Of a stretch of DNA of 64,000 nucleotides, positions 17,842-43,213 are shown in pieces (the first letter of the stretch is position 1; every line of letters starts with the position of its first letter). Position numbers and translations under genes: made by a program. Below the pieces are notes generated by a model, which saw only the letters and a program-made list of their open reading frames with translations, made no database searches and was not told the origin of the DNA. The DNA lies in NCBI RefSeq assembly GCF_013122565.1, contig NZ_CP053258.1; one strand, written 5' to 3'. Origin of the DNA: Escherichia coli (GTDB lineage: Bacteria > Pseudomonadota > Gammaproteobacteria > Enterobacterales > Enterobacteriaceae).

Positions 17842-17844
17842 ATG

Positions 17845-19711: not shown

Positions 19712-19882
<171 letters not shown>

Positions 19883-20167
19883 TAAACGATATTCTCGTCT
19901 TCAAATTACTGATATCAGTTGTTCATCATTACGGCATGCGTCATCACATACATTCAACAGGAGGCAGCCCATCATTGAAAACATCATTCAATATATTTAA
20001 TTAAATCAGGACAACTGATAAATCTAATTTAACAACAAAACAGAATGATGAAGTAAAGATATATAACACAATATTTCAGAGATCAACTCAATTATTCTCA
20101 TCTTCAAACTAGCTGGCTCCTACAAAATCACTCAAAGATAGCAGGATACCTGCCCTTTCTTCTAAGG

Positions 20168-21521: not shown

Positions 21522-21779
21522 TTAGATATTACACAGATAAACAAGAATGCAACAATATCACAACGACCCCATAATGCACGAGACAGTTTAGCTTTTAAAC
21601 ATATAACACATAAAGAAGTATGTCCGCAACTGAGAATAATACAAAAAAATTCCAAAGCCATTATCCCCTCAAAATCGCCAACTTATATATTTTTTAAGTA
21701 TCGCCTTAGTATCGTCCTAGCAAAACCTAAAATTCCTGAGGGGATAGTGTACACCAAATATTGTGTCCACTATCCATGA

Positions 21780-22800
21780 AATCATTAATCGCAGTGCGTA
21801 AAAAGCCCTTATTTTCCCGTTGAGTTCATAATCAAAATGGTTGTACTCTCGTATCGGCCAGAAACCACCGTAGCGAAACTTACTCGTGAGCATGGGATCA
21901 ACAATAATCTACTGTTCAGGTGATACCAGTACTGCTACAAAGGAAAACTACGCCTCCTTCAGCAATAGAAAACAACGTGGCAGCACAGCTCCCCATAACA
22001 CTTAATGCCGAATAGCTTGTCCCTACAACATTCTCCTGGTCACAACTTGTAGCTGCTGAGGCGCCCAAATCACTCAATATCAGCTGTAAAGCGACATTCC
22101 GGCACCGATCACTCCGGCTAAATGGTTCCGTCAGGGACAAAGATCTAGCAGGTCGCTGGCATCACCGATATGAGAAACGGCTTCAACACTGTTCTGCAGG
22201 TGGATATGTACGCCGTGTTCAACGAGCTGTACCACGATGGGCAGATAACGGAAACAGCCTGCTGGGCTCACGTCGTCGCAAGCTCCACGATGCGCACATT
22301 CGCACTCCGTCTGCGTTGACGGAGGAATCCCTGAAACAGATCGGCGAGTTGTATGCCATTGAGGCGGAAATAAAGGAGGATGCCGACAAAACTAAACCGT
22401 GCAGAACGTTAGCAAAAAGCTAAAGTGCGACTGATATCCCTAGCAAGAAGCTGGCTGAGTAAAAAGATGAAAACGTTATCGCGGCTGGCGAAAGTGTTCA
22501 CGTATTTACTGAATCAGCAGCCGGCGCAGGCTAACAATACTGAAGGTGAAAGATCCGAAGCAAATAACAACATTGCTGATAATGGCCAGTCTAGACCACA
22601 AAAACTAACTATTCTTCAGTTCGGAGCACGGGGAAAGCGATGAGCTCTGCTGTACAGTCTCATCAGGGCGATCAAACTGAACGATATTAATCAACGGCGC
22701 AACCTGAGTTATGTGCTTGACGTAATCGCCGACTATCTTATACACCGGGTCACTAAACTACTCCCCTAGCGCATAGCACTGCCAACTGATTAACATATCT
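21780..22800 (+). pseudogene. IS66-family remnant (tnpA fragment plus degenerate 3' half of tnpC)
   Basis: Reads ...LTREHGINNNLLF (tnpA-like), then LQVDMYAVFNELYHDGQITETACWAHV...RTPSALTEESLKQIGELYAIEAEIK (tnpC motifs), broken by many stops. Confidence 0.6.
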
Positions 22801-23992
22801 CCCTCAATATGGTTCTCGCTACACGCTTACATATATTTAAGTATAAAATATAAACATATAAACTAAAAACATTAAACACCAAAAAAAACAAAAAAAACAT
22901 ATACATATAAATTTAAAATCTTTTAAAGTGTAAGAAATCAGAATAAAAACCTGATCTTATAAAGATGGAAACTATAATATTCCAAATTAAAAAATAAAGG
23001 AGTAAATTAACAAACAAGCTAAACAAACCATCAAATTCCGCATAATACACAGCATGGAAATAGATATTGAATGAGCATGCCAATATTGGTATGCGAATGC
23101 TGGCGGTAGCAGTAAAAAAGAAAAATGGTGGGGCGGATGTAGCAGGAGAGCCATATAAAATGCAAATAAAAGACTACCAATATGATAATCAAGGAAAGAT
23201 CAGTAATGATTCCAAATATTCATATTCATATTCATATGCTGACATGATGTCGACTTCTCCTTTTTTCAACCCATTTTTGATACGAAAGCATTGTATTATT
23301 GGTGCTGAAATCTTATGCAGAGTTCAAACGCAAAACAGTTATATATTAAATCAGTTTCATAGCATGAGATTTAAAGACTGAAATTTGGATGTTTATGCTG
23401 TACAGTCGCTATCTAAAACTAGAGAGCATTTATGTGAAAATGAATATCATCTTCCTTAAGGTTTTACTATTACATTAAATGTTACGAGTTCACAAGTTTG
23501 CTCTCCTTTAATAAGAAAGATAGTGCTTTATTTTAACAAAAGATTCACCTCAGGCATCTTCATTATATTTGAGCCTATGGTAGAAAATTCAGTGAGCAGC
23601 ACGTATACAAGGTTATATCTTCACCGGATCATTGGCTGTAAGTGGTATCTTATTTTAGAGTCAGAAAAAAGACATTGGTACGATAAAGGGCTTTCTTATA
23701 AACATTGATACAATTTCACCTGCAAAAATTATTATGCTAAGTTTCATCGAACGCCTTGTCTCTCGTTCTTTCTCTTTTTTCAAAGACGGCAATCCTGTCT
23801 TACACAGAAGATTAAATCTTCATGACAAAAATACAAGTTATTTCAAGAGAGGTGCATATCAGAAAATAATGATTGAGAGTGATAGTTAAGCATATTTCAT
23901 CACTAAGGCGATGAATAATATCTGTGGAGATATTGTTAAATAGTTAACTTTTTAGCAATAATTATTGTTTCATATACTTTAAGGATAATGTT

Positions 23993-24550
23993 ATGAATAA
24001 ATCTAATATTGTATTAACTCTTGTAGCAACCGTTGGAATTATCAGTACAGCCCACTCGGCTTCAACCGGTACAATCACATTTAATGGCGAATTGACTGCT
24101 AATACCTGTGATGCGGTTGTAGATAACCAGAATGCAGATGCAATAGTTACGTTACCTACTGTTGGTATTAATCAACTGGAAAATCAGGGTCAGACTGCTG
24201 GTCGTACAGGCTTTAATATCGCACTGACTAACTGTGCCAGTGCGCTGACAGCTGCTTCCGCTTTCTTTGCCGCTGGCCCCAGTGTGGATTTTGCAAGTGG
24301 TCACCTGAAAAACACGGATGAATCTGATGGTGGAGCAAAGCTAGTCAGCCTGCAGTTACGCGATGAGGCTCCCGGTGCAGGTAGTAAAATTATCCAAGCC
24401 GGTAATGGTAATCAGGCTACAAGTACTCAATATGTAGATGTAATTTCGGGTACTGCAAACCTGCCTTACTCAGTTGAATATTTTGCAGATGGTACGGCCA
24501 CCGCGGGTAATGTAACCAGTAATGTAGTCTATTTCATCCAGTACAAATAA
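23993..24550 (+). CDS. Chaperone-usher fimbrial major subunit
   Basis: 185 aa with signal peptide, GTITFNGELTANTCD, a Cys pair, and a C-terminal beta-strand ending YFIQYK. Confidence 0.85.
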   Translation: MNKSNIVLTLVATVGIISTAHSASTGTITFNGELTANTCDAVVDNQNADAIVTLPTVGINQLENQGQTAGRTGFNIALTNCASALTAASAFFAAGPSVDFASGHLKNTDESDGGAKLVSLQLRDEAPGAGSKIIQAGNGNQATSTQYVDVISGTANLPYSVEYFADGTATAGNVTSNVVYFIQYK

Positions 24551-24651
24551 TCACACAAAGATAATATATCAATAACGTATTTAAGGAGGGCCCCCCCTCC
24601 TTATTAAGAGGTCTCAAAATGTTTACCAGATGTTATTTAAACCACAACCTG

Positions 24652-25329
24652 ATGAAATCTTTACCTCTGCTATTTGTGACTTTATTCAGCCTACATTCAG
24701 AAGCCAGTATAGTTATTACGGGAACCCGGGTAATCTATCCCGCCGGGGAACATTCCGTCAGCGTGAAACTGAATAACAATGGCAAGCTTCCGGTGTTGAT
24801 TCAAAGTTGGGTGGATAATGGTGACCCAGATAAAAAACCAGATGATTCTCAGGCCCCATTTATTATTACCCCCCCGATTAACAGAGTTGATCCCGGAAAA
24901 GGACAGACCTTAAGAGTTACCTTCACTGACCTTCCATTACCCACCGATCGTGAGTCTGTCTTCTGGTTAAACGTGCTGGAAATCCCAACCAGATATGAAC
25001 CAAAATCAAATGATAATTATCTTCAGGTAGCATTTCGTACCAGGATAAAGCTTTTTTACCGACCAGAAAATTTACCAGGAAAATCTCTGGAGGCACCGAA
25101 TACACTCATCTGGAAGATTTCTAGTGGGCAACTGATGGCATCAAATAATTCGGCATGGAACGTATCTCTTTCCAGTATTTCAGTTTGCGGAAAGAAAGTC
25201 GAGGGAAAAATGGTCAGCCCAAGAGGATCTGAAATTTTCCCACTAAAAGTATCCCCGGGTATGCGGGTAAGCTTTGAAGCTGTCAATGACTACGGAGCAA
25301 TCATGAAGAAAACAGCAACCGTACAGTAA
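24652..25329 (+). CDS. Periplasmic fimbrial chaperone (PapD-like)
   Basis: Motifs GTRVIYP, FLIQSW-like (VLIQSWV), TPPxxR (ITPPINRVDP) and NVLEIP. Start taken at MKSLPLL. Confidence 0.88.
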   Translation: MKSLPLLFVTLFSLHSEASIVITGTRVIYPAGEHSVSVKLNNNGKLPVLIQSWVDNGDPDKKPDDSQAPFIITPPINRVDPGKGQTLRVTFTDLPLPTDRESVFWLNVLEIPTRYEPKSNDNYLQVAFRTRIKLFYRPENLPGKSLEAPNTLIWKISSGQLMASNNSAWNVSLSSISVCGKKVEGKMVSPRGSEIFPLKVSPGMRVSFEAVNDYGAIMKKTATVQ

Positions 25330-25353
25330 TAAATATACATAAAGGTTAATACC

Positions 25354-27957
25354 GTGGAAAACAGAATATTTAAACCACACATTATTGCCGTAACGATAGC
25401 AGGACTGTATGGCTTTTCTGTTCATGCTGTCTTTGCGAATGATACTATAAACTCGTCGGACAGCCCGGTCGCTCAAGAAAATACGAAGAAATCCCTACCA
25501 TCCCCAACGTCTGAGCGTATTGAATTTGCCACTGAGGTACTCGAACTAAAAAACAAACAATCAATTGATTTAAGTCGTTTTTCTTCCGGAAACTATTCTC
25601 TACCAGGAAAATATCAGGCAGGCATATGGATTAATGATAGTTTTCTTGGAAACCAAGACATTGAAGTCAAAGGGCATACAGATGGTTCTTCTTATGTCTG
25701 TATAACGCCTGATCTGCTGAAGATACTTCCATTATCTTGGGACAGATTAAGTGAGTATAAATTCAATCAGGCCCCCGAATCTACCAACTGTTCTGATGTT
25801 TTAGCCAGTATACCGGATTCCCGTGTAACGTTTGATAGCGGAGAACAACGTCTTGATGTTGCTATTCCTCAGAAATTCATTATCCATCAGGCTCGCGGAA
25901 GTGTCAGTCCTGATTTATGGGACAGTGGAATACCCGCAGCTTTTCTCAGCTACAACATGAACAGCTGGGCAAGTCAGTCACGTGGGTATGATTATAAATC
26001 TCTTTATACCTCGGTTAACTCCGGTATGAATATTGGTGCATGGTATTTCCGTCATAATGGTTCTTACACATGGTCTGAATCTGGCGAGAAAGATTATCAG
26101 TCGATTAATACCTATGCACAGCGTGATATTCTTTCCATTAAGGGACGATTACTCATTGGCCAGTCAAATACTACCGGTCGACTGTTTGATACCGTCCCCT
26201 TTTCCGGGGTGCAACTGGCAAGTGATGAGAGAATGTATCCCTCATCGCAACGTGGTTATGCCCCGGAGATACATGGTATAGCTAAGACTCACGCTAAAGT
26301 GACTGTCCGCCAGAATAGTGTGGTCATTTATGAGACAACAGTTTCACCGGGTGAATTCGTTATTGATGATTTATACCCGACGGGATTTGGTGGAGATCTC
26401 ATGGTCAATATTCATGAAGCAGATGGGCAGGAAAGATATTTCACAGTGCCTTTTGCCTCAACACCGCAATTGCTGAGGCCTGGATCATATCGTTACTCAT
26501 TCACCGGGGGAAAGTTACGCCAAATTTCACTGTCAGAAAAACCACAGTTTTATGAAGCAACATGGCAACACGGGTTGACAAACTTTCTTTCAGGTTATCT
26601 GGGGTGGCAGCAGAGTGAGAACTATTATGCAGCTCAGGCCGGTTTAGCTGTTGGCTCACTGGCAGGCTCCCTGTCTTTCGATATCACTCAGTCCCACGCT
26701 ACTTTTGATAAATCCGGACGAAATACCGGTCCATTATCAGGTAATGACAGCTCTTCATCAGGTCAAAGTTACCGGCTCAGCTATTCAAAATTAATTCAGA
26801 ATACAGGAACGTCCATAAACCTAGCTGCCTATCGTTTTTCAACAGAAGGGTATTATGACTTCACTACTGCGATGATGACCCGTGAGGCGATTAAACGTGG
26901 TTACGATTCGAACGTCATTAAAAGAGCGAAAAGTCGTTACACTCTGAGCGTGAACCAGTCATTGGCGGAAAGTCTGGGACAGCTTTACGCTAGTGCTTCA
27001 CTGCAAAAATACTGGAACAGTGACGATTCAGATAAACAGTATCAGCTTGGTTACAGCAATCACAGGAAATTAGTTTCATACGGAATAAGTGTCAGCCGAA
27101 GCTATTCCTGGTATGGAAAAAGTGATACCAGTTGGATGGCATCCGTGAGCTTTCCCCTTGGGAATGTCAGTGAGGAGCATACACCAAATATTCGCTTTGA
27201 TGCCGTACGTACGTCAGGTGGCCATTACTCAGAGTCGGCCTCAATCTCTGGAAATGCGGGGGTCGAAAACCAGTATAGCTATGGAGTGACAGCCAGCAAT
27301 GCCGGCGGAGATACCGGGAGCAGTCTGTTTGTTAACGGGCAATGGCGTACGCCTTATACATACCTGAGCGGTAGCAATAGTAATGGCAGGAATTACCGGA
27401 GCCAGTCTCTTGGTGCCAGTGGTTCACTGATTGCGCATTCCGGTGGAGTGACACTCAGCCCGTACATATCAGATACCTGGGCACTGGTTGAAGCCAAGGG
27501 CGCAAAGGGAGCCAGAGTATCATCATATCCGGGGGTTATGGTCGATCGCGTTGGATATGCAGCAGTTCCCTATCTTAATGCCTACGAACTTAATGAAGTG
27601 GCTATAGATCCAAATAATGCCGATAATGACGTTGGTTTTGAGAACACATCCCGTAAGGTAGCTCCCTATTCTGGCGCAATTGTGAAGGTCAAATATGATA
27701 CACAGACCGGGGTTCCAGTATTGATTGATGCAGGATGGAAAGGACAACCTATACCATTCGGTGCCGATGTTATTGATGAGAGCGGTAATTATATGGCGAC
27801 TGCAGGTCAGGCAGGACAAATTTTTACAAGGCTTGAACCCGGCAGGCATGTGCTGAAGTTAAAAGCAGGAAGCCAGGGCAGTTGCAGTCTCCCCGTTGAA
27901 ATCCCCGAGACCGTATCGCCGTCAAACCTGCTCAGATTTAAAGTTACGTGCTTATAA
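25354..27957 (+). CDS. Fimbrial outer-membrane usher
   Basis: 867 aa with a GTG start after aaagg. Usher hallmarks include FNxxFL-type N-terminus, YAPEIHGIA and VTVRQNSVVIYETTVSPGEFVIDDL. Confidence 0.9.
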   Translation: MENRIFKPHIIAVTIAGLYGFSVHAVFANDTINSSDSPVAQENTKKSLPSPTSERIEFATEVLELKNKQSIDLSRFSSGNYSLPGKYQAGIWINDSFLGNQDIEVKGHTDGSSYVCITPDLLKILPLSWDRLSEYKFNQAPESTNCSDVLASIPDSRVTFDSGEQRLDVAIPQKFIIHQARGSVSPDLWDSGIPAAFLSYNMNSWASQSRGYDYKSLYTSVNSGMNIGAWYFRHNGSYTWSESGEKDYQSINTYAQRDILSIKGRLLIGQSNTTGRLFDTVPFSGVQLASDERMYPSSQRGYAPEIHGIAKTHAKVTVRQNSVVIYETTVSPGEFVIDDLYPTGFGGDLMVNIHEADGQERYFTVPFASTPQLLRPGSYRYSFTGGKLRQISLSEKPQFYEATWQHGLTNFLSGYLGWQQSENYYAAQAGLAVGSLAGSLSFDITQSHATFDKSGRNTGPLSGNDSSSSGQSYRLSYSKLIQNTGTSINLAAYRFSTEGYYDFTTAMMTREAIKRGYDSNVIKRAKSRYTLSVNQSLAESLGQLYASASLQKYWNSDDSDKQYQLGYSNHRKLVSYGISVSRSYSWYGKSDTSWMASVSFPLGNVSEEHTPNIRFDAVRTSGGHYSESASISGNAGVENQYSYGVTASNAGGDTGSSLFVNGQWRTPYTYLSGSNSNGRNYRSQSLGASGSLIAHSGGVTLSPYISDTWALVEAKGAKGARVSSYPGVMVDRVGYAAVPYLNAYELNEVAIDPNNADNDVGFENTSRKVAPYSGAIVKVKYDTQTGVPVLIDAGWKGQPIPFGADVIDESGNYMATAGQAGQIFTRLEPGRHVLKLKAGSQGSCSLPVEIPETVSPSNLLRFKVTCL

Positions 27958-32894: not shown

Positions 32895-34385
32895 TCATGC
32901 CAATGGACTCATTACCCTCTGCCTGAGTAGTTCAAATCCAGCTTGACCATACATCTGGCGTTTGAGCATCTTCAGGCGATTTACATGACTTTCGACAACA
33001 CCATTACTCCAGCGACTGCTGACTGCCTCACATATAGCCGCAGCATCGGCTTCCATCACCGCAGCCACGCGCCGAAGTTCTGCTGAATCGATTTCGTGGA
33101 CTCGAGTGAACCAGCTGCTTAGCCGTGATTTAGTTTGGGTTTTCAGAATACGGTAGAACTCTAGTGCCAGTTGATGCGCTATTTTCAGCTCCGGTTCTTT
33201 TTCACACATCAGACTAATAAATCGGGAAGCATAATTTTCTTCACCCCTGATTATTCTCCAGGGCATCAACCAGCGGCTTACCCGGTACACTGAAAGAAGT
33301 CTGGCAGCAGTAGTCACCAGCGGGATCCAGCCTTTACGCCATTTGGCAACAGCATCCCTGACGATGTTTTCACTGCCTGTAACCCCCCGGGTCACCATTT
33401 CCCGCATATCCGGCTGGCATTATAATTACCACTTTCTCATTGCTCTTTTAACCACTCCCTCCAAGGGTCCAGAAGTCCTCGCTTTGGAGGCCGGGTTGAC
33501 ATTTCAGGGAATGTTCCTGAACGCGCCCAGCGACTGACTGTCACTCGCGACAGGCCTGTAATACGGGATATTTCCCTGAAACTACATCCCTTGTTATGCA
33601 GGGCCATAACCTCTGTCCAACGCTGATGCCGTTTTTTGCGGATTTGCTGTTTAAGGCGTTCCGGACGACGGAGCGATGCTGCAGGCACAGACAGTTCTGG
33701 CTCAGGTGATTTCTTTGGTGACAACTCACTGGCAACAAGACGTATCAGATGCCTATGTCTGTACATCAATCGTTCAAGCGCATCGCCAATATTTTTTAGC
33801 AGATGCTATCGATCAGCCACCTGTCTGACCTGAGGTGCACCTTCACGTGCTGCTGTCGCATAGGTTCCACTGCGATCACGCGAGACAACCTGTATTTCCG
33901 GATATTTTCTGAACCAGGTCGCCAGCGTACGCTGATCGCGGTCGGGAAGCAGGACAGTGAGTATCAAGATTGACTATTAACGTACCGTAACGGTGGCCCC
34001 GATGCCACGCCCACTCATCAATACCGACATGGGGTGAGCCTGACAGTTTCGTCTCCGGGGTATTGATAACTCTGCGAAGAAGAGTATCTGCACTGCAACA
34101 GAGACCCACTGCCGTTGCTGCCCGTTTTCCAGCCTCACCTCCAGCTATTAATCCCAGTTGACGTTGTAAATTTTGTAACGCCTGTGAAGACTGCTGGTGT
34201 GAACCAGCGAAGGGAGTAAGCGACTCGGCAAAAATTTTACGTGAACAAGCTGGGTTACGGCAGTACCAGTGGCGGGCGGAAAATACAAGCCATAGCGTCT
34301 GCCCTGTGTTGAATATTGGCATGCAAAAAATTGGATTGCGCTCGCGCCCTTAATTACCCGGCGATGGGGAATAAGCTTCATCAGC
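32895..34385 (-). pseudogene. ISL3-family transposase gene, split over at least 3 frames
   Basis: N-terminal piece ...HWYCRNPACSRKIFAE...VGIDEWAWHRGHRYGT, a middle piece, and a C-terminal piece ...SNGVVESHVNRLKMLKRQMYGQAGFELLRQRV, in different frames. Confidence 0.7.
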
Positions 34386-34469
34386 CGTTGTCCCCGGGTG
34401 TAGCGTGCACAGTTGCATATCATTCTCAGACGAACCGATGGCTGGAGGGATGGTCGCCGCAGCCTGCCA

Positions 34470-35790
34470 TGAGACTGTAATTAAAATTGTGTAATTGCCT
34501 GTTTTTGATATGTTCACTCCAATAACGGAGACAGGCAAATTATGGACGAAAAGAAACTCAAAGCACTGGCGGCTGAACTGGCTAAGGACCTTAAAACCGA
34601 AGCCGACCTCAATCAGTTTTTCCGTATGCTGACGAAATTAGCCGTCGAAACAGCGCTCAATGCGGAGCTGACTGACCACCTCGGACATGAGAAAAATGCG
34701 CCAAAAACAGGTTCAAACACCCGCAATGGCTACTCGTCAAAAACGGTGTTATGCGATGATAGCGAGATCGAACTGAACACGCCGCGTGACCGTGAAAACA
34801 CCTTCGAGCCGCAGCTGATTAAGAAGCACCAGACGCGCATTACTCAGATGGACAGCAACATTTTATCCCTTTACGCCAAAGGCATGACTACCCGAGAAAT
34901 CGTCGCCACCTTCAAAGAAATGTCCGACGAAGATGTGTCACCCACGCTGATATCTAAGGTCACCGACGCGGTAAAAGAACAGGTTACTGAGTGGCAAAAC
35001 CGACAGCTGGATGCGCTGTATCCCATTGTTTACATGGACTGTATCGTCGTAAAAGTCCGTCAGAATGGGAGTGTGATAAACAAGGCCGTCTTCCTGGTGC
35101 TGGGGATCAATACCGAAGGCCAGAAAGAGTTGCTGGGCATGTGGCTGACCGAAAACGAAGGCGCAAAGTTCTGGCTGAGTGTGCTGACGGAGCTGAAAAA
35201 CCGTGGCCTCCAGGACATTCTTATAGCCTGTGTGGACGGTCTTAAGGGCTTCCCGGATGCGATAAACAGCGTCTTCCCGCAGCCCCATATCCAGCTGTGC
35301 AGCATCCATGTGGCGCGTAACAGCCTGAAATACGTGTCCAAGAAGGACTACAAAGCCGTCACCAGCGGCTTGAAGACTGTCTATCAGGTCCGGACCGAAG
35401 AGGCGGCACTGATGGCGCTCGATGCGTTCGCGGAAGTCTGGGACGATAAATATCCGCAAATCAGCAAAAGCTGGTATGCGCACTGGGAAAACCTCAATAC
35501 GCTCTTCAGTTATCCGCCGGATATCCGCAAGGCCATCTACACCACGAACGCAATCGAATCGCTTATCAGTATGATCCGAGCTGCGATTAAGAAACGCAAA
35601 GTGTTCCCGACGGATGACTCGGTACGAAAGGTTATTTATCTGGCGACCAAAGATGCGTCGAAAAAATAGAGTATGCCGATCCAGAACTGGCGGTTAGCAA
35701 TGAGCCGTTTTATTATCGAGTTCGGTGATCGCCTGAGCGATCACCTTTAATACATTGGCAGTTACACACAATTACTGACAGGCTCCCTGC
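34470..35790 (+). mobile_element. IS256-family (IS1414-like) insertion sequence
   Basis: Mutator-type transposase flanked by imperfect inverted ends (aattgtgtaattgcc at ~34485 versus ggcagttacacacaatt at ~35757). It abuts the 5' end of the ISL3 remnant. Confidence 0.7.
34542..35750 (+). pseudogene. IS256-family transposase with an in-frame TAG replacing the expected Trp codon 376
   Basis: 375 aa, then tag at 35667-35669; the same frame continues SMPIQNWRLAMSRFIIEFGDRLSDHL*. The recalled family consensus here is KKWSMPIQNW. Confidence 0.75.
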
Positions 35791-35840: not shown

Positions 35841-37367
35841 TTATTCTTTCAGAGGGGGGTAGCTAAATACACTTCCGACACAGTGATATGCCGGTTTTCC
35901 TGACAGCATGTTGTGTTTTGCGTCCAGCTCTGAAGGCGTCATTTCGGAAGCAAGATATTTGACATAATGTGTTCCACTTTCATCTTCCCATAACTGAACT
36001 TTGCCTTCCTCAGCAAGCTGTTCCAGAACAGGCTCAAGATCAGCTTTTTTTCTGAGTGAACGATGCAAGCCCTGCATCATGTCACGCCTTAAAAAATCAT
36101 AAGATCCATTTTTAACAAGATGGTTTTCGAGCCACCAGATAACTCTTTCAGAATGCGAAGGCCCTCTGACAGCATCCATTTTTACAATAAAATGGTTAAG
36201 ATACCATTCTGATATTAACAACGCCGCTTCCAACGTTTCGAGCGTAATAACAGTTGAGTCAGGAGTAATAAACAACTGCATCACAGCGGCATTCCTTGCT
36301 GTATGTTCAATGTATCGTGCTGCCCAGTCGCTGTGATGGTACAACTTTTTCCCTGGTTGCATCAGATGTTTTACGTACCTGCCAACATCATGTAGCCGTT
36401 TCTTTGCATCAGGTGAAAAAGTCATACAGATACGGGGGTGATTTTTTTCCCTGCGTTCAATCCCTGCAAGTAAATGTTTTTTCTGAATAGAATAAAACGT
36501 TTCCAGGTCGGACTCATCGCCAGATACCAGCTCATCAATATCAATTAGTCTGCTGAGTAACGTAAGATCCATGGTTAACGTCCGCGCATATACTCCCGTA
36601 GCCCGTACTGTATTGCCCAGCGATTTCAGTGTGCTATCGTGTGGTTCCGGTTGCGTCATCAGCAGCATACCAAGCCGTGGATCCTTAATATCGTAACAGC
36701 CCGTTGACACACGGCTGACCCGATAATCATCACCACACCACAACGTATTAGGAACTGCTGTCTTACGGCGCATAATGCTTTCATGCAGAGCACTTCCCTC
36801 GTCAGACGTGATACCCAGACTGGGATATTCCCCTAGCTCTTTCAAAAGTGCTTCAGCCGTAGGATCCGTTACCGTGAGACGCACTCTCACGGGTTTAATG
36901 GGCTGATTTTTAAGACATTCCTCCAGTTCGTTTCTGGCTTTATCCACTCCATCTTTCTGACGCACTGCTTTCTGAAGCAATTTCTTAAGACTCTTACATT
37001 CTTCATCCCATAGTACGTATTGCCGCTCATACTCCTTCAGCCTAACTGAGAACACATCAGCCAGCTCTCTCTCAATTTGATGAATTTGCGCCATGATGAG
37101 CCTGTATACTGTCGTTTTTCTGCTTCCTGATCTCGCCAGTATTATGTGAAATTGTGACACAGGAACGATAACGCCATCATCAATTTCAACATCATACATA
37201 TCCTGACAGGCCAAGGCCATGCTCCCCTGAAGCGTCGCAAAGATAAGCTCCACCGCTGCTCTTGTTTTGCCATATATACAAAATATAACTTTTTGAAAAA
37301 AATACAAAATCGCTCTGGCGCTCAGATTAACATCATGATTTTCAGTTTTTTTATATGTGAGTTTCAT
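35841..37367 (-). CDS. YfjI-like protein (DUF3987-type, P-loop-like)
   Basis: 508 aa, immediately downstream of alpA as yfjI is in CP4-57. ILARSGSRKTT is a P-loop-like motif. Confidence 0.6.
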   Translation of the reverse strand: MKLTYKKTENHDVNLSARAILYFFQKVIFCIYGKTRAAVELIFATLQGSMALACQDMYDVEIDDGVIVPVSQFHIILARSGSRKTTVYRLIMAQIHQIERELADVFSVRLKEYERQYVLWDEECKSLKKLLQKAVRQKDGVDKARNELEECLKNQPIKPVRVRLTVTDPTAEALLKELGEYPSLGITSDEGSALHESIMRRKTAVPNTLWCGDDYRVSRVSTGCYDIKDPRLGMLLMTQPEPHDSTLKSLGNTVRATGVYARTLTMDLTLLSRLIDIDELVSGDESDLETFYSIQKKHLLAGIERREKNHPRICMTFSPDAKKRLHDVGRYVKHLMQPGKKLYHHSDWAARYIEHTARNAAVMQLFITPDSTVITLETLEAALLISEWYLNHFIVKMDAVRGPSHSERVIWWLENHLVKNGSYDFLRRDMMQGLHRSLRKKADLEPVLEQLAEEGKVQLWEDESGTHYVKYLASEMTPSELDAKHNMLSGKPAYHCVGSVFSYPPLKE

Positions 37368-37391
37368 TGCATAATCTCTCTTTAGAAAAAA

Positions 37392-37616
37392 TTAAACACT
37401 TCTGGATGCAATCCACTCATCAACGGAAGTGGAACGACATCCAACGGAGGCAGCACCGAGTCTGACGGGCTTTGGAAACGTTTCGTCGTAATACCTGGAT
37501 TCAGGGTTTAGCTTTTCATAGATAGTTGACCGGGACAGACCGACTATTTTCGTCAGTTCTCTCATACGCAGAATACGTTGCTGTGGCTCTGGTTGGGTGG
37601 TTTGAAAAGATGACAT
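37392..37616 (-). CDS. alpA: AlpA-family phage/island transcriptional regulator
   Basis: Start at MSSFQTT, preceded by aggag, gives 74 aa. LRMRELTKIVGLSRSTIYEKL...FPKPVRLG is the AlpA HTH. The ORF-track N-terminal extension is unlikely. Confidence 0.85.
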   Translation of the reverse strand: MSSFQTTQPEPQQRILRMRELTKIVGLSRSTIYEKLNPESRYYDETFPKPVRLGAASVGCRSTSVDEWIASRSV

Positions 37617-37716
37617 TATCGATTCTCCTGTGAATGTCCGGATGTGACCGAACTTTGGCACAGGATTTGGAATAATGTCCCCGTAAAAGAAACGAAACCA
37701 ACTGCAGGGAGTGACT

Positions 37717-39561
37717 ATGCATACGTTTGCCAATCTGATGTATGATGTTTACCAATCCTTTGGCTTATTCAGTAAAGGGGACCGGCAAGGCGAGATACGG
37801 GCATCTGCAACCTTTTCAGGTCATCAGCGATTTTTTGGTAATCGTGATGATGAAAGACATCAGGAACAAAAACGCTATGATGAAATCATAAGAATTATTG
37901 ATGTAGAAAAGGTGTTCAGTACAGTTCAACGAAGGGAAATCTTTTATAAATATGAGCAACTTTATAATGCGCTGATGGCTCGACCGAGCTTTACCAAACT
38001 GAGTCGAAAACAAGTACAAAAGCAGTATGCTCTGCATATCATCCCCAGACTAATCGCACTTGACATATATAAAACGTATAAAATTCAAAATAAAAACAGT
38101 TTTTATCATCATATACATCTGTTTCTGAAAGAGGACTATTGCCCATGTGGAGCAGATAAAAAAAAAGGAACTTACTCTGCAGTACGGCAGTATCTCAAAA
38201 ACCTTATAAGAAATTTAAAATTATCTTATCCAGAAAACTTGCTTCCTGTTTATCGCGTAATTGAAAACATCCGTGAGAGTTCATCACAGAAAGCAGGTGC
38301 GCTGAATGCTCCCATACAAGAGAGCATTGAGGCTTACGAAGCCATTGTTACACCAGAAGAGATTAAATACATCAGAACTGGTCTGGAAGAATTAAAAACC
38401 GCACATTATTCACTGACCGTACTCCTTAACCTTGAACGTCTATTCTCTGTTGTTAATATAATCTCGTCATATTACAGAAAGTATCTTAACGATGGAATAA
38501 GGCCAAATAATATCTCGTCTATGCTATGCAGGTATCTTTATGAACCCCAAAGTAATGACATCTTCTGTCACAGTAACATCATTAATTCAATTGTGGAGTA
38601 CTACTACGTGCGGGCAATAAAACCCCTATCACTGAATGTAAGCAATGATGTTATGCTGTGCGTGGATAAATTAAAAGACATTGTATTTAATTTTAATAAC
38701 AAAACCATTATTTCTGAAGCGGATTTAATAAATATTGCAGTTGTATTAAAAAAAGAACCTGACAATCATTGTCTGATGCCATATCTTGAACTGCATATGG
38801 TGATACATTTAATCAGCCATGGAGAAACTGACGAAGCTTATGAGATGCTTAAACGGGTTTCTCTGGATGATTTACCTTCAGGATATCTGACAGCTGCTTT
38901 TTTAATTCTCCGTACTGCATTACGAATAAAGAGAGAAAGGAAAAAAATCAAAAATGGTGTTTTCTCCTCGGATATAACAGCAATACTGGAAAGTCAGGGG
39001 ATCTATACTGACTATGTCCCTGTCATTAAGGACTATACAAACAACGGCATTGATGGGTCTCTTACGAAAAATTCATTTTTATCTGGCACCATTTTACCAG
39101 ATGCCAACAATCTGACCATCATGCGTATAGTAAGAATGTATAATAATATGGTCAGAAGAATAAGTCACTGGAATGACCTTTATCATGACGGTGTTTTTCC
39201 GGAGTCTGTTTATGGGCTCCTTGATAAAGTTGATGCCATTCTTGGTAAGATACTCAATATTATCTTTTTTGAAAATATCACATCCAGACGGAATTTAGCC
39301 TTCATCCTGAAAAATAAAAAAATCCTTACCACAAGTGAGCTGAATGATAACCTCATTGGTATACTGATTAACTGTCCACTTATAACGTGCGTACAAAACC
39401 TCGAAATTTTAATACAATACCTTCGCTGTCCGGGAGAGGAGTTAAGAAATATAATTATTTCAATTGACAGGAAATCATGGAATTTGATATGCGGAGCCCT
39501 GAAAATCCTGGAGGAAGACAGAACAGGACGAGCAGAAATAACACAGAAAGATGGGAAATAA
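37717..39561 (+). CDS. ~615-aa AT-rich orphan protein, predicted all-helical, no recognisable domain
   Basis: Long uninterrupted ORF (the track starts at GTG 37711; ATG 37717 follows aggga). Divergent from alpA by ~100 bp. A 20-bp perfect palindrome follows. Confidence 0.7.
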   Translation: MHTFANLMYDVYQSFGLFSKGDRQGEIRASATFSGHQRFFGNRDDERHQEQKRYDEIIRIIDVEKVFSTVQRREIFYKYEQLYNALMARPSFTKLSRKQVQKQYALHIIPRLIALDIYKTYKIQNKNSFYHHIHLFLKEDYCPCGADKKKGTYSAVRQYLKNLIRNLKLSYPENLLPVYRVIENIRESSSQKAGALNAPIQESIEAYEAIVTPEEIKYIRTGLEELKTAHYSLTVLLNLERLFSVVNIISSYYRKYLNDGIRPNNISSMLCRYLYEPQSNDIFCHSNIINSIVEYYYVRAIKPLSLNVSNDVMLCVDKLKDIVFNFNNKTIISEADLINIAVVLKKEPDNHCLMPYLELHMVIHLISHGETDEAYEMLKRVSLDDLPSGYLTAAFLILRTALRIKRERKKIKNGVFSSDITAILESQGIYTDYVPVIKDYTNNGIDGSLTKNSFLSGTILPDANNLTIMRIVRMYNNMVRRISHWNDLYHDGVFPESVYGLLDKVDAILGKILNIIFFENITSRRNLAFILKNKKILTTSELNDNLIGILINCPLITCVQNLEILIQYLRCPGEELRNIIISIDRKSWNLICGALKILEEDRTGRAEITQKDGK

Positions 39562-39579
39562 TTGCATATTTCCACCTCT

Positions 39580-39621
39580 CTCCCGGCTACACTGGCTACG
39601 TGTAGCCAGTGTAGCCGGGAG
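39580..39621. repeat. Perfect 20-bp inverted repeat 18 nt after the orphan's stop
   Basis: ctcccggctacactggctac-gt-gtagccagtgtagccgggag. No flanking T-run. Confidence 0.9.
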
Positions 39622-41047
39622 TCACACCCTGAAAGTAACAATGCGAAAACCAGGAGCTTGTCCCAACAGGATTTTATTCCAGATGATTAGGCCGCTGGTA
39701 ATATACAGCAGAGCCTTATAACTTCAGTTCTTTTCCCATCAGCTCAGTATCTGACGAAAACAATGAATCCAGCTATAAACCCTACCTACTATCCACAGGC
39801 GAGCTTTCCTCCTTCTGGTATCTTCCCCTGTTTACTCGACTGAATATGAGGTTCACAGCATCGCTGCCTCCAGATAATTGCTCAACCATTCGTCATCAGC
39901 AACCTTTTCACTTTGAAAACAACATCGATAACCCCCTGCATATATTATATACTGAAATTATTACTCTTTATTTAGAAAATATAGAAAAAATGAACCTTGA
40001 AAGTTATAATTCGCAAATAAAATTAACCTAATCTTAAACCGCGGCATCAACTTTAACATTTCACAGCCAAAGATAATACTTATGCAAAACATTACGCTGG
40101 GATGCATTATGGAAGATAATTTTTGATTTCATTCGCGATAAAAACAATACTGTAAAAATTTGAATACGCAAAAAATAAATATGTAAAAGCAGATGATATT
40201 TCCATTTATGTCGAGCGCCAGCGTTATGCATAGAAGACTTATAAAAAGTAACGGTATTTTCATTGACGTTCTGTAACACAGATATAAAATAACAGGTATT
40301 CATAAAGAATAAATCATTAATACAGCTATTGCCCCAATATCTATACGACGTGTAATTATTATCAGGCAGCGCTAGCAAGGCGGACATTACAAGCACAAAG
40401 AAATAATATATCTTCGGTTTTCTACAATCACCGTAAATCGTCCCTCTTCCACTTTAAGGCCTGAAAAAATATGGCGCCAACATCATACAAACGAAGAAAT
40501 TAAATATTCTACACAACCACAGCGAATTTTCTCATTTATGACATTACTCTAATTTTATTTCTCCACTAAGCATATGCGTCAAACAATAAATACCCTCCAG
40601 CCACAGAGTCTAAACTGATATACAATATCGCTGTTTGCTTTATCGCCCCTCTTCCAATATAGAACGCATACCATTAAATCATTTACCTCTTTCCAGATAC
40701 AAGTCATGATTATACGTCCCATTGAGTTCTTATTCTCATGCAGAAATTGTGACTCAATAAATGCAGAATTAAAGCCTGTTAATATTCATGGTATAGCCAG
40801 ATTTTCTCTCTGTCTTCTTTTGTCTCCGAACAACTCATATACCATTATCCTGATTAATCTTCGCGTACTCATACGACGTCTTCCCCCTTCAACTATACCC
40901 TATTGAAATGATTTTATTGCTTTTGTTCAGACAACAAAAAAATGCGAGCTCTGACACAACAGTAAAAACCAACCGTTAAAGTATCTCTGTGTTTCCACAC
41001 TCTCCCTTGCTGAGAGGGAATTCTGAGCCCGGTCACTTGAGCTTGAT

Positions 41048-42251
41048 TCACCATCTTTTTGGATTACTGGGAAGTTGTGACATCACATAATCCGCCCACG
41101 CCTGCATCATCGGTATATGCTGATCCAGTAGATCAGTCCGGTGATATGCTGCCTCAACCTTATTTTTCAGCGTGTGGGCAAGCGCCCTTTCCGCCAAATC
41201 CCTGTTCACTACACCAGTCCCTGAATGTTGAACGAAAACCATGTGCTGTTGCCACCCGTCCGGGTATATCACTGATGGCATTCTTTTTACGCAGAAAACT
41301 CGTCAACACCATATCTGAAAGGATCTGCTGCTTTCTGGGAGAAGGAAACACCAGTTCATCATGCAAACCACGTATATTTTCCAGAACGTGAATGGCCTGC
41401 CGGGATAAAGGAATACGATGCTGTATCCTAGCTTTCATTCTTTCTGCTGGTATCGTCCATATCCGCTTATGAAAATCAATTTCAGCCCAGCGCATTCCCC
41501 TGGCTTCGCCCGAACGGGTTGCTGTAAGTATCACCATTAATAACAGTGCTCGGGTAACATTATAAGGTTCATCTGTATACACGCTTGTCGCCACAAACAG
41601 CGGTAATTGCCTCCAGGGCATTGCCGGCTGATGTTCATCACGTCCTCTTGATTGCTGTGGAAGCAAATGTTCAACCACATCAACAGGATTTGCCACACAA
41701 AAACCATGCGCCCAGCCCCACTGCATAACAACATGAATACGCTGTTTAATCCGGCTTGCCGTTTCTGATAAGGTCAACCAGATTGGACGCAGTGTCTCTG
41801 CCACGTCCGCAGCCGTAATCTCATTCAGCGTTTTTGCTCCCAATTGAGGAAACACGTAATTTTCAAGCGTCGACAACCACTGCCTGACATGCTTTGGATT
41901 TTCCCATCCCGGTGACAATTCTGCATGTACACGCATGGCTGCATCGGCAAATGTTGGGATAACAACTTTTTCAGCTTCAGCCTTTTTGATCTCCAGAGGA
42001 TCATCACCTGCAGCAAGTTGCTCTCGCATTATCCGGGCAGTACGTGCAGCTTCGGCAATACTGACCTCAGGGTAAGTTCCCAATCCAGCATTACGCCTTT
42101 TTTGTGTCACCGGACTTACATAACGAAAAACCCATTTACCCCGCCCCTTTACTGAAGAAGGATGAAGGGTCAGCCCTGTAATTCCCCCATGAGGCAATGG
42201 TTTGTCATCAGGTTTGATATGCCTTGCTTTTGTATCAGTCAATACTGCCAT
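41048..42251 (-). pseudogene. P4-type tyrosine integrase, frameshifted before the catalytic Tyr region
   Basis: The 363-aa frame carries R (TATRSGEARGMRW) and HGFRSTFRDW, then goes out of frame near 41200-41215. A second frame (41048..41281) carries RDLAERALAHTLKNKVEAAYHRTDLL. Confidence 0.8.
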
Positions 42252-42273
42252 ACGCTAATTCCTGTTTCTCTAG

Positions 42274-42294
42274 TATGCCATCCAGTATGCCCTT
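42274..42294 (+). repeat. Tandem GTATGCC(A/C) boxes between int and attR
   Basis: gtatgcca at 42274-42281 and gtatgccc at 42287-42294, in the same orientation as the pair at 11100-11119. Confidence 0.45.
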
Positions 42295-42412
42295 ATTCTC
42301 ACACTTCACTAAGCATACATTAGATAATATCGGACAGAAAAAATTTGTAATGTATTGTTTATAATTAAATTATACAACGCCTCTGGATTAAGTCAGATTT
42401 ATTTCAGGCGGT

Positions 42413-42426
42413 CCCCCTCACCGCCA
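42413..42426 (+). repeat. attR core: displaced copy of the serX 3' end (ccccctcaccgcca)
   Basis: 14/14 identity with 11030-11043. Followed by its own terminator hairpin. Confidence 0.8.
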
Positions 42427-42441
42427 TATTTAAATAAATAT

Positions 42442-42465
42442 CCTCCGGCATAGCCGGAGGTTTTT
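42442..42465 (+). terminator. Hairpin terminator after the displaced serX 3' end, probably the original serX terminator
   Basis: cctccggc-ata-gccggagg followed by ttttt. Confidence 0.65.
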
Positions 42466-42508
42466 CAAATGCGCCTATAAGGCTCTCTTACCAGCCGCGC
42501 CCTAACAG

Positions 42509-43213
42509 GCGCACACGATCTGACATTTGCATCCAACTTCGTTACTTACGGCCCGTAAACGGGCTGCCCGGATAGGGAATCGATAACTGCTCTCCCATTT
42601 CATCCTCTTCAAGCTGGTGCTTTATGTAATCCTGTATCTTCGCCGTGTTCTTACCCACCGTATCGACGTAATACCCTCTGCACCAGAACTCCCTGTTCCT
42701 GTATTTGAATTTCAAATCCCCAAACTGCTCATAAAGCATCAGACTGCTTTTCCCTTTCAGATATCCCATAAAGCCGGATACGCTCATTTTGGGCGGGATC
42801 TCCACAAGCATATGGATATGATCTGCACAGCATTCAGCTTCAAGAATCCGTACGCTTTTCCACTCACACAGCTTTCTCAAAATACTGCCTATTGCTCTAC
42901 GCTTCTCTCTGTAGAACACTTGTCTTCGGTATTTTGGCGCAAAAACTATGTGATATTTACAGTTCCATCGGGTGTGCGCTAAGCTCTTTTCGTTCCCCAT
43001 TGGGACCCCCTTTTGATTTCTTGTTTGACACTTGCAGTTGCCAGACCGCAAGGTGTTTTAACAAATCAAAAGGGGTTTTAATAACTGGCTCAAAGCTGAA
43101 AGCTTTCCGGAACCCCCAGTCTAGCTGGGGGTTTTCTGTGCACAAGAAGAGCCCGTACGAAAGTACGGGCTTTTTTTTCGTATATTGCACACACCGGGTG
43201 CCCCCGCCCACGT
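42509..43213 (-). mobile_element. IS200 copy (boundaries approximate)
   Basis: 152-aa Y1/HUH transposase. Upstream hairpins gcccgtac-gaaa-gtacgggc plus T-run and aacccccag...ctgggggtt are typical of the IS200 left end. The span between flanking complementary 11-mers is 705 bp. Confidence 0.6.
42542..43000 (-). CDS. tnpA: IS200 transposase TnpA (HUH/Y1)
   Basis: MGNEKSLAHTRWNCKYHIVFAPKYRR...ADHIHMLVEIPP...GYYVDTVG, 152 aa. The ORF-track N-terminal extension is not used. Confidence 0.9.
   Translation of the reverse strand: MGNEKSLAHTRWNCKYHIVFAPKYRRQVFYREKRRAIGSILRKLCEWKSVRILEAECCADHIHMLVEIPPKMSVSGFMGYLKGKSSLMLYEQFGDLKFKYRNREFWCRGYYVDTVGKNTAKIQDYIKHQLEEDEMGEQLSIPYPGSPFTGRK

Follow-up and report, generated by a model that had tools for sequence, protein, structure and literature searches.

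The open reading frame at positions 37717..39561 of the window (the whole analysed stretch of 64,000 nucleotides of Escherichia coli DNA), labelled X in the following, is a real gene and, on comparison of homologous loci, a conserved backbone element of its genomic island. It ranks among the core genes of a self-contained cassette that consists of a palindrome, X and, divergently, alpA-yfjI(-yfjJ). Since X is invariably found back-to-back with alpA, it is most likely part of the island's own control machinery. The best explanation, to which we assign a rough probability of 35%, is that X acts as a non-enzymatic, α-helical and partly TPR-like regulatory or adaptor scaffold of an AlpA-controlled excision/replication switch. 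A regulator had been listed among several possible functions in the original prediction, which was made from the sequence alone; it is now our best guess, and is not counted among the established facts. The elements of the locus are as follows.

37717..39561, plus strand: X, with an ATG start, 614 aa, 71 kDa, pI 8.8, predicted to be all-alpha; 36.5% GC
37707..37711, plus strand: Shine-Dalgarno sequence GGGAG of X, 5 nt 5' of the ATG
37392..37616, minus strand: alpA, 74 aa, Phage_AlpA family (Pfam PF05930, E 9e-16)
35841..37367, minus strand: yfjI, 508 aa, DUF3987 (Pfam PF13148, E 4e-67), downstream of alpA on the same strand
37617..37716, no strand assigned: alpA-X intergenic region, 100 bp, which must hold both divergent promoters
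37676..37684, plus strand: invariant block TGTCCCCGT (TGTCCSCGT), within GATAsTGTCCsCGT...GAAACCAAC
39580..39621, no strand assigned: palindrome after X with perfect 19-bp arms, CTCCCGGCTACACTGGCTAC GT GTAGCCAGTGTAGCCGGGAG, 18 nt past the stop codon of X

The ORF listing gives an alternative GTG start at 37711 in addition to the ATG at 37717, with a shared end at 39561; the RefSeq annotation in a 99% identical genome is the ATG form of 614 aa. An equivalent of the Shine-Dalgarno sequence (GGAG or GGGAG) was found in all homologues checked. At a GC content of 36.5%, about 6.9% of random codons are stop codons, so that a run of 614 stop-free codons has a chance probability of ~1e-19. The single long ORF that had been described is thus not a chance ORF. 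The marked AT-richness relative to the island backbone was likewise confirmed, with GC values of 0.35-0.38 along X versus 0.44-0.49 for yfjI, alpA and the integrase gene int. At every locus, Aeromonas included, X exceeds all other genes of the module in AT content (0.27-0.39 GC versus 0.39-0.54 for alpA).

The description of X as an orphan was contradicted by its homologues, which group into 119 clusters at an identity threshold of 90% and into 76 at one of 50% and, as judged from these alignments, make X a member of an unnamed family. The 119 clusters were obtained at E <= 1e-71, most of them covering 94-100% of the query, and an exhaustive profile search returned 76 representatives at E <= 1e-3, with 31 at E <= 1e-30. 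The taxonomic range comprises Enterobacterales and Aeromonas, plus one Shewanella metagenome-assembled genome. The ORF is intact, with conserved motifs, across very deep divergence, and it is under purifying selection (dN/dS 0.11-0.27). Positive selection was considered and rejected, as segment-wise dN/dS values ranged from 0.07 to 0.59 and exceeded 1 in no segment; an arms-race signature is therefore absent, and the uneven dS across segments indicates intragenic recombination instead.

The original prediction had placed X in a variable cargo slot between int and alpA. Its statement that X diverges from alpA at a distance of ~100 bp proved accurate, the gap being exactly 100 bp with the genes on opposite strands. 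The cargo assignment was not supported. X is the immediate divergent neighbour of alpA-yfjI in 26 of the 26 other homologue-bearing loci, down to 23-30% identity, and this synteny spans E. coli, Morganella, Providencia, Xenorhabdus and Aeromonas. Among complete E. coli genomes, this type of alpA-yfjI is present in 43 and X in 46, and the two occur together. Wherever the fetched DNA reaches int (which leaves aside the two Aeromonas loci and three shorter ones), int is located on the far side of yfjI, except in the window and a near-identical sister (strain A30, locus L001), so that X mostly does not lie between int and alpA. The cassette was seen in both orientations relative to int and hence behaves as one unit. 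The truly variable slots are the int-yfjJ interval and the region downstream of the palindrome. Variability was borne out in a different sense: X is present as a homologue everywhere and is not variable cargo, but it is hypervariable in sequence, its alleles being 32-55% identical between islands whose integrases are 86-99% identical.

Cargo near X includes a reverse transcriptase with an AAA_15 ATPase between int and yfjJ, as well as BrxC/TerB/helicase genes downstream of X; CP4-57 carries AbpAB. The presence of such defence genes in the islands is one of the points that favour X as a stand-alone anti-phage or abortive-infection factor, whose helical repeats would sense a phage protein and block infection alone or via a host partner. 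Defence cargo is also borne by similar tmRNA islands (PMC12595487), and X itself is hypervariable between islands with near-identical integrases and is AT-rich and basic, as are many accessory genes. We nevertheless regard this function, which had been proposed originally, as unlikely: X stays constant while the neighbouring cargo varies and is linked to alpA rather than to defence genes, a search of PADLOC-DB 2.0.0 yielded 0 families at E <= 10, X lacks conserved catalytic residues as well as any effector, NTPase, nuclease or TM domain, and its dN/dS is below 1 in every segment. An unannotated AT-rich gene beside an integrase need not be defence cargo; here, comparative synteny puts the real slots one gene further out on both sides.

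The AlphaFold2 model of X (mean pLDDT 81.4, pTM 0.81) contains ~30 helices and 0 strands, in agreement with the all-helical protein anticipated from the sequence, and the predicted richness in Ile, Asn, Lys and Leu was also found, these being the four commonest residues. The absence of a recognisable motif or TM segment was verified as well: searches of Pfam, PADLOC and NCBIfam gave 0 matches at E <= 10, neither the single sequence nor the family profile matched a PDB sequence at E < 0.1, and the maximum of the Kyte-Doolittle plot (19-residue window) was 1.59. The best PHROGs match reached only E 0.046, and Foldseek comparisons of the model with the PDB and with BFVD viral models returned nothing at E < 0.8; the TPR-like similarity is weak and generic. 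Neither an HTH nor any other DNA-binding domain was detected by Pfam or NCBIfam in the enterobacterial X proteins, the window copy included. No publication was retrieved by a literature search with the RefSeq accessions of X and YfjI.

Among close members of the family, H36, D62, E80, D116, H132 and H134 are invariant His, Asp or Glu residues. An enzymatic function was rejected, as only E80 and, in part, H132 persist once the Aeromonas members are added. In 27 diverse members, only E80, Y356, A374, G389, L402, Y475, N476, L555 and C558 are near-invariant, and a catalytic constellation is absent among the conserved residues. Residues 1-120 are the most conserved and residues 150-360 the most variable, a pattern expected of an anchor combined with a sensor. 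The first 50 residues are conserved and were modelled at low pLDDT.

The divergence of X correlates with that of AlpA with a Spearman coefficient of 0.93, versus 0.56 for YfjI and 0.39 for Int. The strong correlation with AlpA could reflect plain physical linkage. In loci L007 and L021, AlpA is 92% identical but X only 40%, so that the type of X is not strictly bound to the AlpA subtype, which argues against a tight cognate pair. Between L006 and L021, X is 82% identical but YfjI only 34%.

The intergenic region shows a mean column identity of 71% in a comparison of lineages with X proteins of 36-39% identity (alignment A2), with pairwise identities of 57-83%. It is thus far more conserved than X, which suggests a dense cis-regulatory content at the point of divergence between alpA and X. 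The TGTCCSCGT block, which 18 of the 28 fetched loci share at an identical distance upstream of X, is a candidate contact site for a regulator or RNA polymerase. A consensus sigma-70 scan detected no promoter above threshold in this region; overlapping divergent promoters were assigned by eye and are only a lead. It was also considered that the AT-rich 1.8-kb body of X acts in cis, providing a platform for H-NS nucleation and so silencing the adjacent alpA promoter, with the protein being secondary. The low GC content of X at every locus would fit this idea, as would the similarity of the conserved intergenic block (GATAsTG/AATAATG) to the sites, given as GATAATG (PMC5148205), through which H-NS silences the alpA promoter in CP4So. 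However, the protein is under purifying selection, an intact ORF with its conserved motifs has been retained despite very deep divergence, and it is predicted to fold confidently. A role in cis, which could coexist with a role of the protein, is therefore very unlikely to be the main explanation.

In each arm of the palindrome after X there are two GCTAC 5-mers, and a T-run does not follow. A GCTAC palindrome lies within ~120 nt of the X stop codon in nearly all Enterobacterales loci, and the Aeromonas loci have a related palindrome with TGCTA repeats. Covariation analysis showed 89.5% of cells to be paired, with 9 of the 19 pairs changed on both sides, a result reached by 0 of 500 shuffles, whereas the inner GCTAC/GTAGC is invariant. 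The maintenance of symmetry through two-sided changes around an invariant core is more suggestive of a site recognised by its sequence than of a simple terminator. A consensus scan found no canonical terminator after X, and an Rfam search of positions 37300-42600 gave only two sub-threshold chance matches, one of them on the palindrome. The homology of two E. coli alleles of the locus stops just past the palindrome; conservation ends there, and neither a small conserved ORF nor a signalling-peptide gene was found after X.

In three separate Aeromonas lineages (P0136, P0137 and P0146), residue 1 of the X domain follows directly on an added N-terminal domain that combines an HTH with a part resembling IS481 transposases. 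Over their first 260-310 residues, these fusions match NCBIfam NF033577 with E 1e-11 to 4e-22, at scores of 44-79 bits relative to a curated cut-off of 224, and contain Pfam HTH_29. The first catalytic Asp is replaced, as judged from an alignment made by eye; together with the sub-cut-off scores, this suggests that the IS481-like domain is domesticated rather than active. The lineage examined for context (P0137/P0194) has the fusion at the same position, beside alpA-DUF3987-YfjJ. The AlphaFold2 model of P0137 had a mean pLDDT of 39.6, which is too low to be informative. The similarity to IS481-family transposases is confined to the Aeromonas relatives: an HTH plus DDE (rve) domain is wholly missing from the window protein (Pfam, NCBIfam). 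The fusions are an apparent case of a transposase domain taken up as a DNA-binding module.

Both the palindrome and the fusions would be compatible with an accessory role of X in DNA processing, in which X recognises the palindrome as an ori, oriT or dso and helps YfjJ, an inovirus Gp2-like rolling-circle Rep, and YfjI to start replication or mobilisation. The element trails X in nearly all Enterobacterales loci, with its TGCTA version in Aeromonas, and shows paired changes around a fixed core without a T-run; the fusion partner derives from a transposase, a class of proteins that bind terminal inverted repeats, and YfjJ homologues match REP_ORF2-G2P/inovirus Gp2. Against this, YfjI lineages have been swapped independently of X, as in L006 and L021, nuclease, helicase and HUH motifs are absent from X, its DNA binding is putative, and the palindrome could simply form the 3' hairpin of the X transcript. 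We consider such a role possible, at low odds.

According to the preferred reading of X as a regulatory scaffold, the conserved 100-bp region would contain two weak divergent promoters lying close together, one for X and one for the alpA operon. Through its N-terminal part (~residues 1-280), which is basic and conserved, X would be anchored to a conserved component of the island, with the intergenic DNA, the 3' palindrome, AlpA and RNA polymerase as candidates, and the variable central helical repeats would bind a fast-evolving partner, either a phage or a host protein. Whether the alpA operon is kept off or released, and with it excision and replication, would then depend on the occupancy of this sensor part. 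In Aeromonas, the DNA anchor would be supplied in cis by the fused, catalytically degenerate IS481-type HTH/RNase-H-like domain. Contact with DNA or AlpA, sensing and the direction of regulation are all steps that we infer from the invariant synteny with alpA, the co-occurrence in E. coli, the co-divergence of X and AlpA, the conserved intergenic region, the Rosetta-stone fusion in Aeromonas, the lack of a catalytic constellation and the conserved N-terminus combined with a variable centre. They are also in line with the literature, in which the alpA promoter is the decision point in related elements: in CP4So it is silenced by H-NS (PMC5148205), and Gram-negative PICIs have AlpA as their phage-induced master regulator (PMC11773190). 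Counted against this reading were the lack of a detected DNA-binding domain, the weak TPR likeness, the absence of a promoter at the scan threshold, dN/dS values that never exceed 1 and the unrelated protein YfjH at this position in CP4-57 of K-12.

At a greater depth of comparison, the place of X in CP4-57 is taken by the unrelated YfjH (b2623), which resembles X in that it lies between intA and alpA, diverges from alpA-yfjI-yfjJ, is uncharacterised and has no Pfam family. It differs in its length (318 versus 614 aa), and the CP4-57 locus, unlike X loci, does not contain the GCTAC palindrome. Homology between the two proteins was rejected, with a best BLASTP E value of 0.18 and, when YfjH was compared with the family profile by hhalign, a probability of 0.3%.

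Stl proteins, which are a few hundred residues long, are repressors with an HTH. As in the case of X, the Stl-type repressors of SaPIs/PICIs diverge from the excision/replication operon and differ strongly between related islands; in the window, X is on the integrase side of the alpA-yfjI operon, as with Stl-type logic. In contrast to Stl, the Enterobacterales X proteins have no HTH detectable by Pfam or NCBIfam, and the general searches brought up no resemblance to Stl proteins. The RRNPP receptors (NprR/Rap/PlcR/AimR) are set apart from X by their N-terminal HTH, which is missing from Rap as well, and by an adjacent signalling-peptide gene. Gram-negative PICIs have been described as being controlled by AlpA and not by an Stl analogue (PMC11773190). 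X might be the missing phage- or host-sensing switch of the Gram-negative CP4-57-type islands, equivalent in function to SaPI Stl but with a new helical fold that has no HTH, which we hold to be improbable. Its N-terminal part would then keep AlpA or the alpA promoter inactive until the central repeats bind a specific phage protein. If so, the identity of only 32-55% between X proteins of islands with 86-99% identical integrases would represent helper or inducer specificity, and the palindrome and the intergenic block would be the DNA anchors of X.

CP4-57/tmRNA-type islands are common in Enterobacterales, Aeromonas, Shewanella and Pseudomonas and carry much accessory anti-phage and virulence cargo. 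The setting of their excision switch is known only in fragments (AlpA, H-NS, Hha). Should the X family be part of this switch, it would provide a concrete partner of AlpA and two conserved DNA elements for one large lineage of islands, and it would explain why a large, fast-evolving gene is retained beside alpA.

The host element of X is, from its gene content, a CP4-57-like or tmRNA-type integrase island. It contains genes for a tyrosine integrase, AlpA, YfjI, a YfjJ/Gp2-like protein, JAB/RadC, antirestriction, DUF932 and CbtA/CbeA proteins, and has 14-bp direct repeats at serX. Its remaining features in the window are given below.

39640..41047, no strand assigned: the actual occupant of the X-int interval, ~1.4 kb of AT-rich DNA that is free of genes and includes an IS5-transposase remnant at ~39654-39854
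41048..42251, minus strand: tyrosine integrase gene, frameshifted, with 11 bp deleted in comparison with strain A30, whose gene is intact (404 aa)
42413..42426, plus strand: distal att repeat CCCCCTCACCGCCA, a perfect match to the 3' end of tRNA-Ser(GGA) at 11030-11043; int-proximal island end

X had been thought to fill the int-alpA interval by itself, which is incorrect given the additional ~1.4 kb of gene-free DNA. This filler was examined as hidden cargo and rejected, as it contains no credible ORFs and only the remnant, which matches IS5 transposase genes at 68%; it is present at full length only in the three sister genomes. In integrated P4, the gene order is int, a hotspot, psu-delta-sid and, divergently, vis...alpha, with vis corresponding to alpA, and both Sid and Psu are all-helical. 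The order in the window (int, the non-coding filler, X and, divergently, alpA-yfjI) runs parallel to this arrangement and X is likewise predicted to be all-helical, so that, by analogy, X could occupy the place of sid-delta-psu in a satellite-like island and remodel or redirect a helper phage or the machinery of conjugation so that the island is transferred. Related islands are moved by phages (PMC11773190, PMC12595487). We rate such a function as quite unlikely: the PHROGs and BFVD searches described above provided no match to a phage or satellite protein, X-bearing islands comprise at least 30 kb and have no packaging or capsid genes, and the parallel with P4 holds only for a minority of loci, as most of them carry the cassette in inverted orientation with respect to int.

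The core set of the host island corresponds to that listed for the Pseudomonas I23/I44/I55 islands (PMC12595487) and CP4So (PMC5148205). Together with CP4-57, these elements are tRNA/tmRNA-integrated islands with IntY/IntA, AlpA, an inovirus-Gp2-like protein, RadC and YqaJ; an X-like gene is not described in the available parts of the two papers. The search for the att repeat gave two matches, with 0 expected. The AlpA protein of the window carries a W60C exchange at a Trp residue that is invariant in the 11 other loci from which AlpA was extracted and in the sister genome, which, together with the frameshift in int, indicates that the island is decaying in this strain.

The AT-rich gene at 37717-39561 of the window (+ strand; referred to as X, as are its homologues) is carried by a single ORF (37711/37717 to 39561 in the ORF listing of the window), whose ATG form of 614 aa is annotated by RefSeq as 'hypothetical protein' in the 99% identical genome of E. 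coli A30. A GGGAG ribosome-binding site is located 5 nt upstream of the ATG, with an equivalent site in every homologue checked, and by our own arithmetic the chance probability of a 614-codon open frame at this composition is ~1e-19. The GC content of the ORF is 36.5%, compared to 44-49% for yfjI, alpA and int. The divergent alpA (Pfam PF05930, E 9e-16) is located 100 bp from X on the opposite strand, with yfjI (DUF3987, E 4e-67) next in line. The protein (71 kDa, pI 8.8) was modelled confidently with AlphaFold2 from a 29-sequence alignment and is predicted to be all-alpha, with about 30 helices (pLDDT 81.4, pTM 0.81). No TM segment was found in it, searches of Pfam, NCBIfam and PADLOC gave zero matches at E <= 10, PHROGs yielded no credible match, and Foldseek searches of the PDB and BFVD with the model returned no match at E < 0.8. 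The original prediction of a long AT-rich ORF, divergent from alpA by ~100 bp and encoding an all-helical protein without recognisable motif or TM segment, was thus borne out; the PADLOC and Foldseek checks proposed along with it came back empty. When the Aeromonas members are included, only E80, Y356, A374, G389, L402, Y475, N476, L555 and C558 are near-invariant, which is not a catalytic constellation, and X is probably a non-enzymatic helical scaffold. Conservation is highest at residues 1-120 and lowest at residues 150-360. Residues 1-50 are conserved but modelled with low confidence, as would be typical of a segment that becomes ordered on a partner.

The description of X as an orphan did not hold. 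At the 90% identity level, a word-indexed search retrieved 119 clusters with E <= 1e-71, every one named 'hypothetical', from Escherichia, Salmonella, Klebsiella, Enterobacter, Citrobacter, Cronobacter, Serratia, Edwardsiella and other hosts, and a profile search run exhaustively over 1.84 billion representatives retrieved 76 clusters (50% identity) and nothing beyond the X family. Named members stem from Enterobacterales and Aeromonas only, plus Shewanella MAGs. X is an uncharacterised family without sequence or fold relatives, residing in an element of known kind. It is rare in complete E. coli genomes (46/5426; three at 99% and 42 at about 77% nucleotide identity). Disruption in most relatives had originally been named as a refuting outcome; it was found in two of 11 species-representative copies. 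Pairwise dN/dS is 0.11-0.27 wherever divergence suffices, in the range of purifying selection. The disrupted copies, in fetched loci (L-numbers), are:

L005 10001-11841, X homologue of Enterobacter pasteurii, frameshift near codon 150
L012 10001-11735, X homologue of Xenorhabdus sp., stop near codon 280

Segment-wise dN/dS within X ranges from 0.07 to 0.59, and the uneven, mosaic dS indicates intragenic recombination. In every host, Aeromonas included, no other gene of the module is as AT-rich as X; that X serves mainly as a cis-acting H-NS platform is a very improbable alternative.

Synteny was surveyed by tblastn of the X, AlpA, YfjI and Int proteins of the window against all fetched loci. 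In all 26 other loci with a homologue (22 genomes/assemblies, one metagenome and three IMG/VR sequences), X lies immediately divergent from alpA-yfjI. The two are separated by 100-150 bp in Enterobacteriaceae, Serratia, Xenorhabdus and one of the Morganella loci and, going by the tblastn coordinates, by about 300 bp in Providencia and a second Morganella locus. Only in the window and its sister genome is int found on the X side, a gene order like that of the K-12 cryptic prophage CP4-57 (intA, yfjH, alpA, yfjI, yfjJ). The other loci that reach int show the order att, int(+), slot, yfjJ(-), yfjI(-), alpA(-), X(+), slot, backbone; at both Aeromonas loci and at three shorter ones, the fetched DNA stops short of an int. 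Examples of slot contents, both likely to be defence systems, are:

L017-L020 3807-6965, cargo slot between int and yfjJ: reverse transcriptase, AAA_15 ATPase, small ORF
L021-L024 ~12318-21448 (9243-18373 in L024), cargo slot downstream of X: ResIII/DEAD helicase, BrxC_BrxD ATPase, TerB_N protein

Since the context of X is constant and its flanks vary, the term 'variable slot' fits the stretches that flank the cassette rather than X, which had been thought to occupy such a slot. Nor is X the sole content of the int-alpA interval, which it had been said to fill: the remainder (39640-41047) is ~1.4 kb of AT-rich DNA (33-36% GC) without credible ORFs. This stretch contains a ~200-bp IS5 remnant, with 68% similarity to IS5 transposase genes, and only three sister genomes share it. 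Homology between the two E. coli X alleles ends about 80 bp past the stop codon, and the alpA-yfjI type of the window occurs in 43 E. coli genomes, nearly equal to the X count (46). Our strongest statements concern anatomy: X belongs to the core of a portable cassette (palindrome, X, divergent alpA-yfjI-yfjJ), hosted by tyrosine-integrase islands of the CP4-57/tmRNA-island kind. The stand-alone defence role originally considered for X is unlikely, and a role as helper-exploitation factor, for which X would be the positional analogue of P4 sid-delta-psu, is less likely still.

X is flanked by two conserved elements of non-coding DNA. Among lineages that share no more than 36-39% identity in the X protein, the alpA-X intergenic region aligns with a mean column identity of 71% (pairwise 57-83%) and includes the invariant blocks GATAsTGTCCsCGT ... 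GAAACCAAC, and TGTCCSCGT is found at an identical offset in 18 of 28 loci. A consensus scan of this region detected no sigma-70 promoter; reading by eye suggests a pair of weak promoters whose -10 regions overlap, and a GGGAC motif recalls the element bound by AlpA in P. aeruginosa (PMC7969949); both are only leads. Downstream of X, a palindrome not followed by a T-run was identified, with a homologous counterpart of ~40 bp located 12-120 nt past X in nearly all Enterobacterales loci examined. Coordinates, also for the Aeromonas loci L015 and L016, are:

39580-39621, window, perfect palindrome with 19-bp arms, starting 18 nt past the X stop codon
L002 14190-14233; L017 11829-11872; L009 12007-12050; L015 12881-12916; L016 5810-5861; and others, palindromes at other loci

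In an alignment of 13 Enterobacterales sequences, 89.5% of cells pair and 9/19 pairs are changed on both sides, values reached by 0/500 shuffles, and slid controls collapse. No variation is seen in the inner GCTAC/GTAGC, and within each arm a pair of GCTAC 5-mers is spaced by about one helical turn. An equally placed perfect palindrome, there with TGCTA repeats, occurs at both Aeromonas loci. The element may form a hairpin at the transcript 3' end, bind a protein or serve the Gp2-like Rep as an origin. In a possible but doubtful reading, X would be an accessory in DNA processing that works at the palindrome together with the Gp2-like Rep and DUF3987 proteins.

Pairwise identity matrices of X correlated closely with those of AlpA (Spearman 0.93) and less so with those of YfjI (0.56) and Int (0.39). 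Integrases of the ssrA type are 86-99% identical across islands whose X and YfjI proteins share 32-55% and 34-75% identity, respectively. YfjI lineages have been exchanged independently of alpA-X (L006 versus L021: X 82%, YfjI 34%), and the X type is imperfectly tied to the AlpA subtype (L007 versus L021: AlpA 92%, X 40%). Modular shuffling of the cassette was seen in L006/L008 versus L021/L012, and in L007 and L017.

Three Aeromonas lineages encode X proteins with 260-310 additional N-terminal residues (P0136, 865 aa; P0137, 933 aa; P0146, 866 aa). Fusion genes in the fetched loci are:

L015 10001-12850, Aeromonas X fusion gene
L016 2938-5739, Aeromonas X fusion gene

These N-termini match the IS481 transposase family NF033577 (NCBIfam) at E 2.5e-11 to 4e-22, with 44-79 bits against a cut-off of 224, and P0137 passes the Pfam HTH_29 threshold. 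The X domain begins directly behind the transposase-like domain, whose first catalytic Asp is not conserved (by eye), so that the HTH and degenerate IS481-transposase-like parts are regarded as a putative domesticated transposase module. Proteins of the P0137 type are conserved from end to end in A. media and A. salmonicida, at 60-65% identity, and keep the position of X, divergent from alpA-DUF3987-YagK/YfjJ. The AlphaFold2 model of the P0137 fusion was uninformative (pLDDT 39.6).

As X is kept with alpA and conserved flanking sites and, in one clade, has a DNA-binding domain fused to it, we rank first, at a probability of about 0.35, a regulatory or adaptor role in an AlpA-controlled excision/replication switch. 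Reports on related elements show the alpA promoter to be the decision point (PMC5148205, PMC11773190). The family, whose function we infer, provides a solid, testable lead on the control of a widespread island type.

The window island is of the CP4-57/tmRNA-island kind, with JAB/RadC, antirestriction, DUF932, CbtA/CbeA and YfjJ genes and a fimbrial operon. It spans ~31 kb between 14-bp direct repeats of the serX 3' end (11030-11043 and 42413-42426). The integrase gene adjoins the distal partial repeat rather than the intact tRNA gene, the opposite of the usual tRNA-int geometry. Whereas X is intact in this strain, two neighbouring genes carry lesions:

41048-42251, - strand, int, 11-bp deletion by comparison with E. 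coli A30, whose 404-aa gene is intact; frameshifted and split into 363-aa and 77-aa ORFs
37392-37616, - strand, alpA, W60C at codon 60 (SVGWRS to SVGCRS)

The frameshift marks int as a pseudogene in this strain. Trp60 is invariant in A30 and in the 11 other loci from which AlpA was extracted, and W60C is possibly inactivating. Between yfjI and yfjJ (33400-35700), the alpA-yfjI-yfjJ operon is interrupted by relics of transposase genes (ISL3, IS3 and IS256) that contain frameshifts and internal stops. Given these three defects, the island is probably immobile here. An IS200-type tnpA (42542-43051, - strand) lies between the distal att repeat and ycdU, with no counterpart there in A30. Outside the island, by ycdU (44313 onwards, - strand; 18223-26502 in the A30 locus L001), genes for an ACP S-malonyltransferase, beta-ketoacyl synthases, an ABC transporter and a lipoprotein-sorting protein form a cluster suggestive of polyketide or fatty-acid-like biosynthesis.
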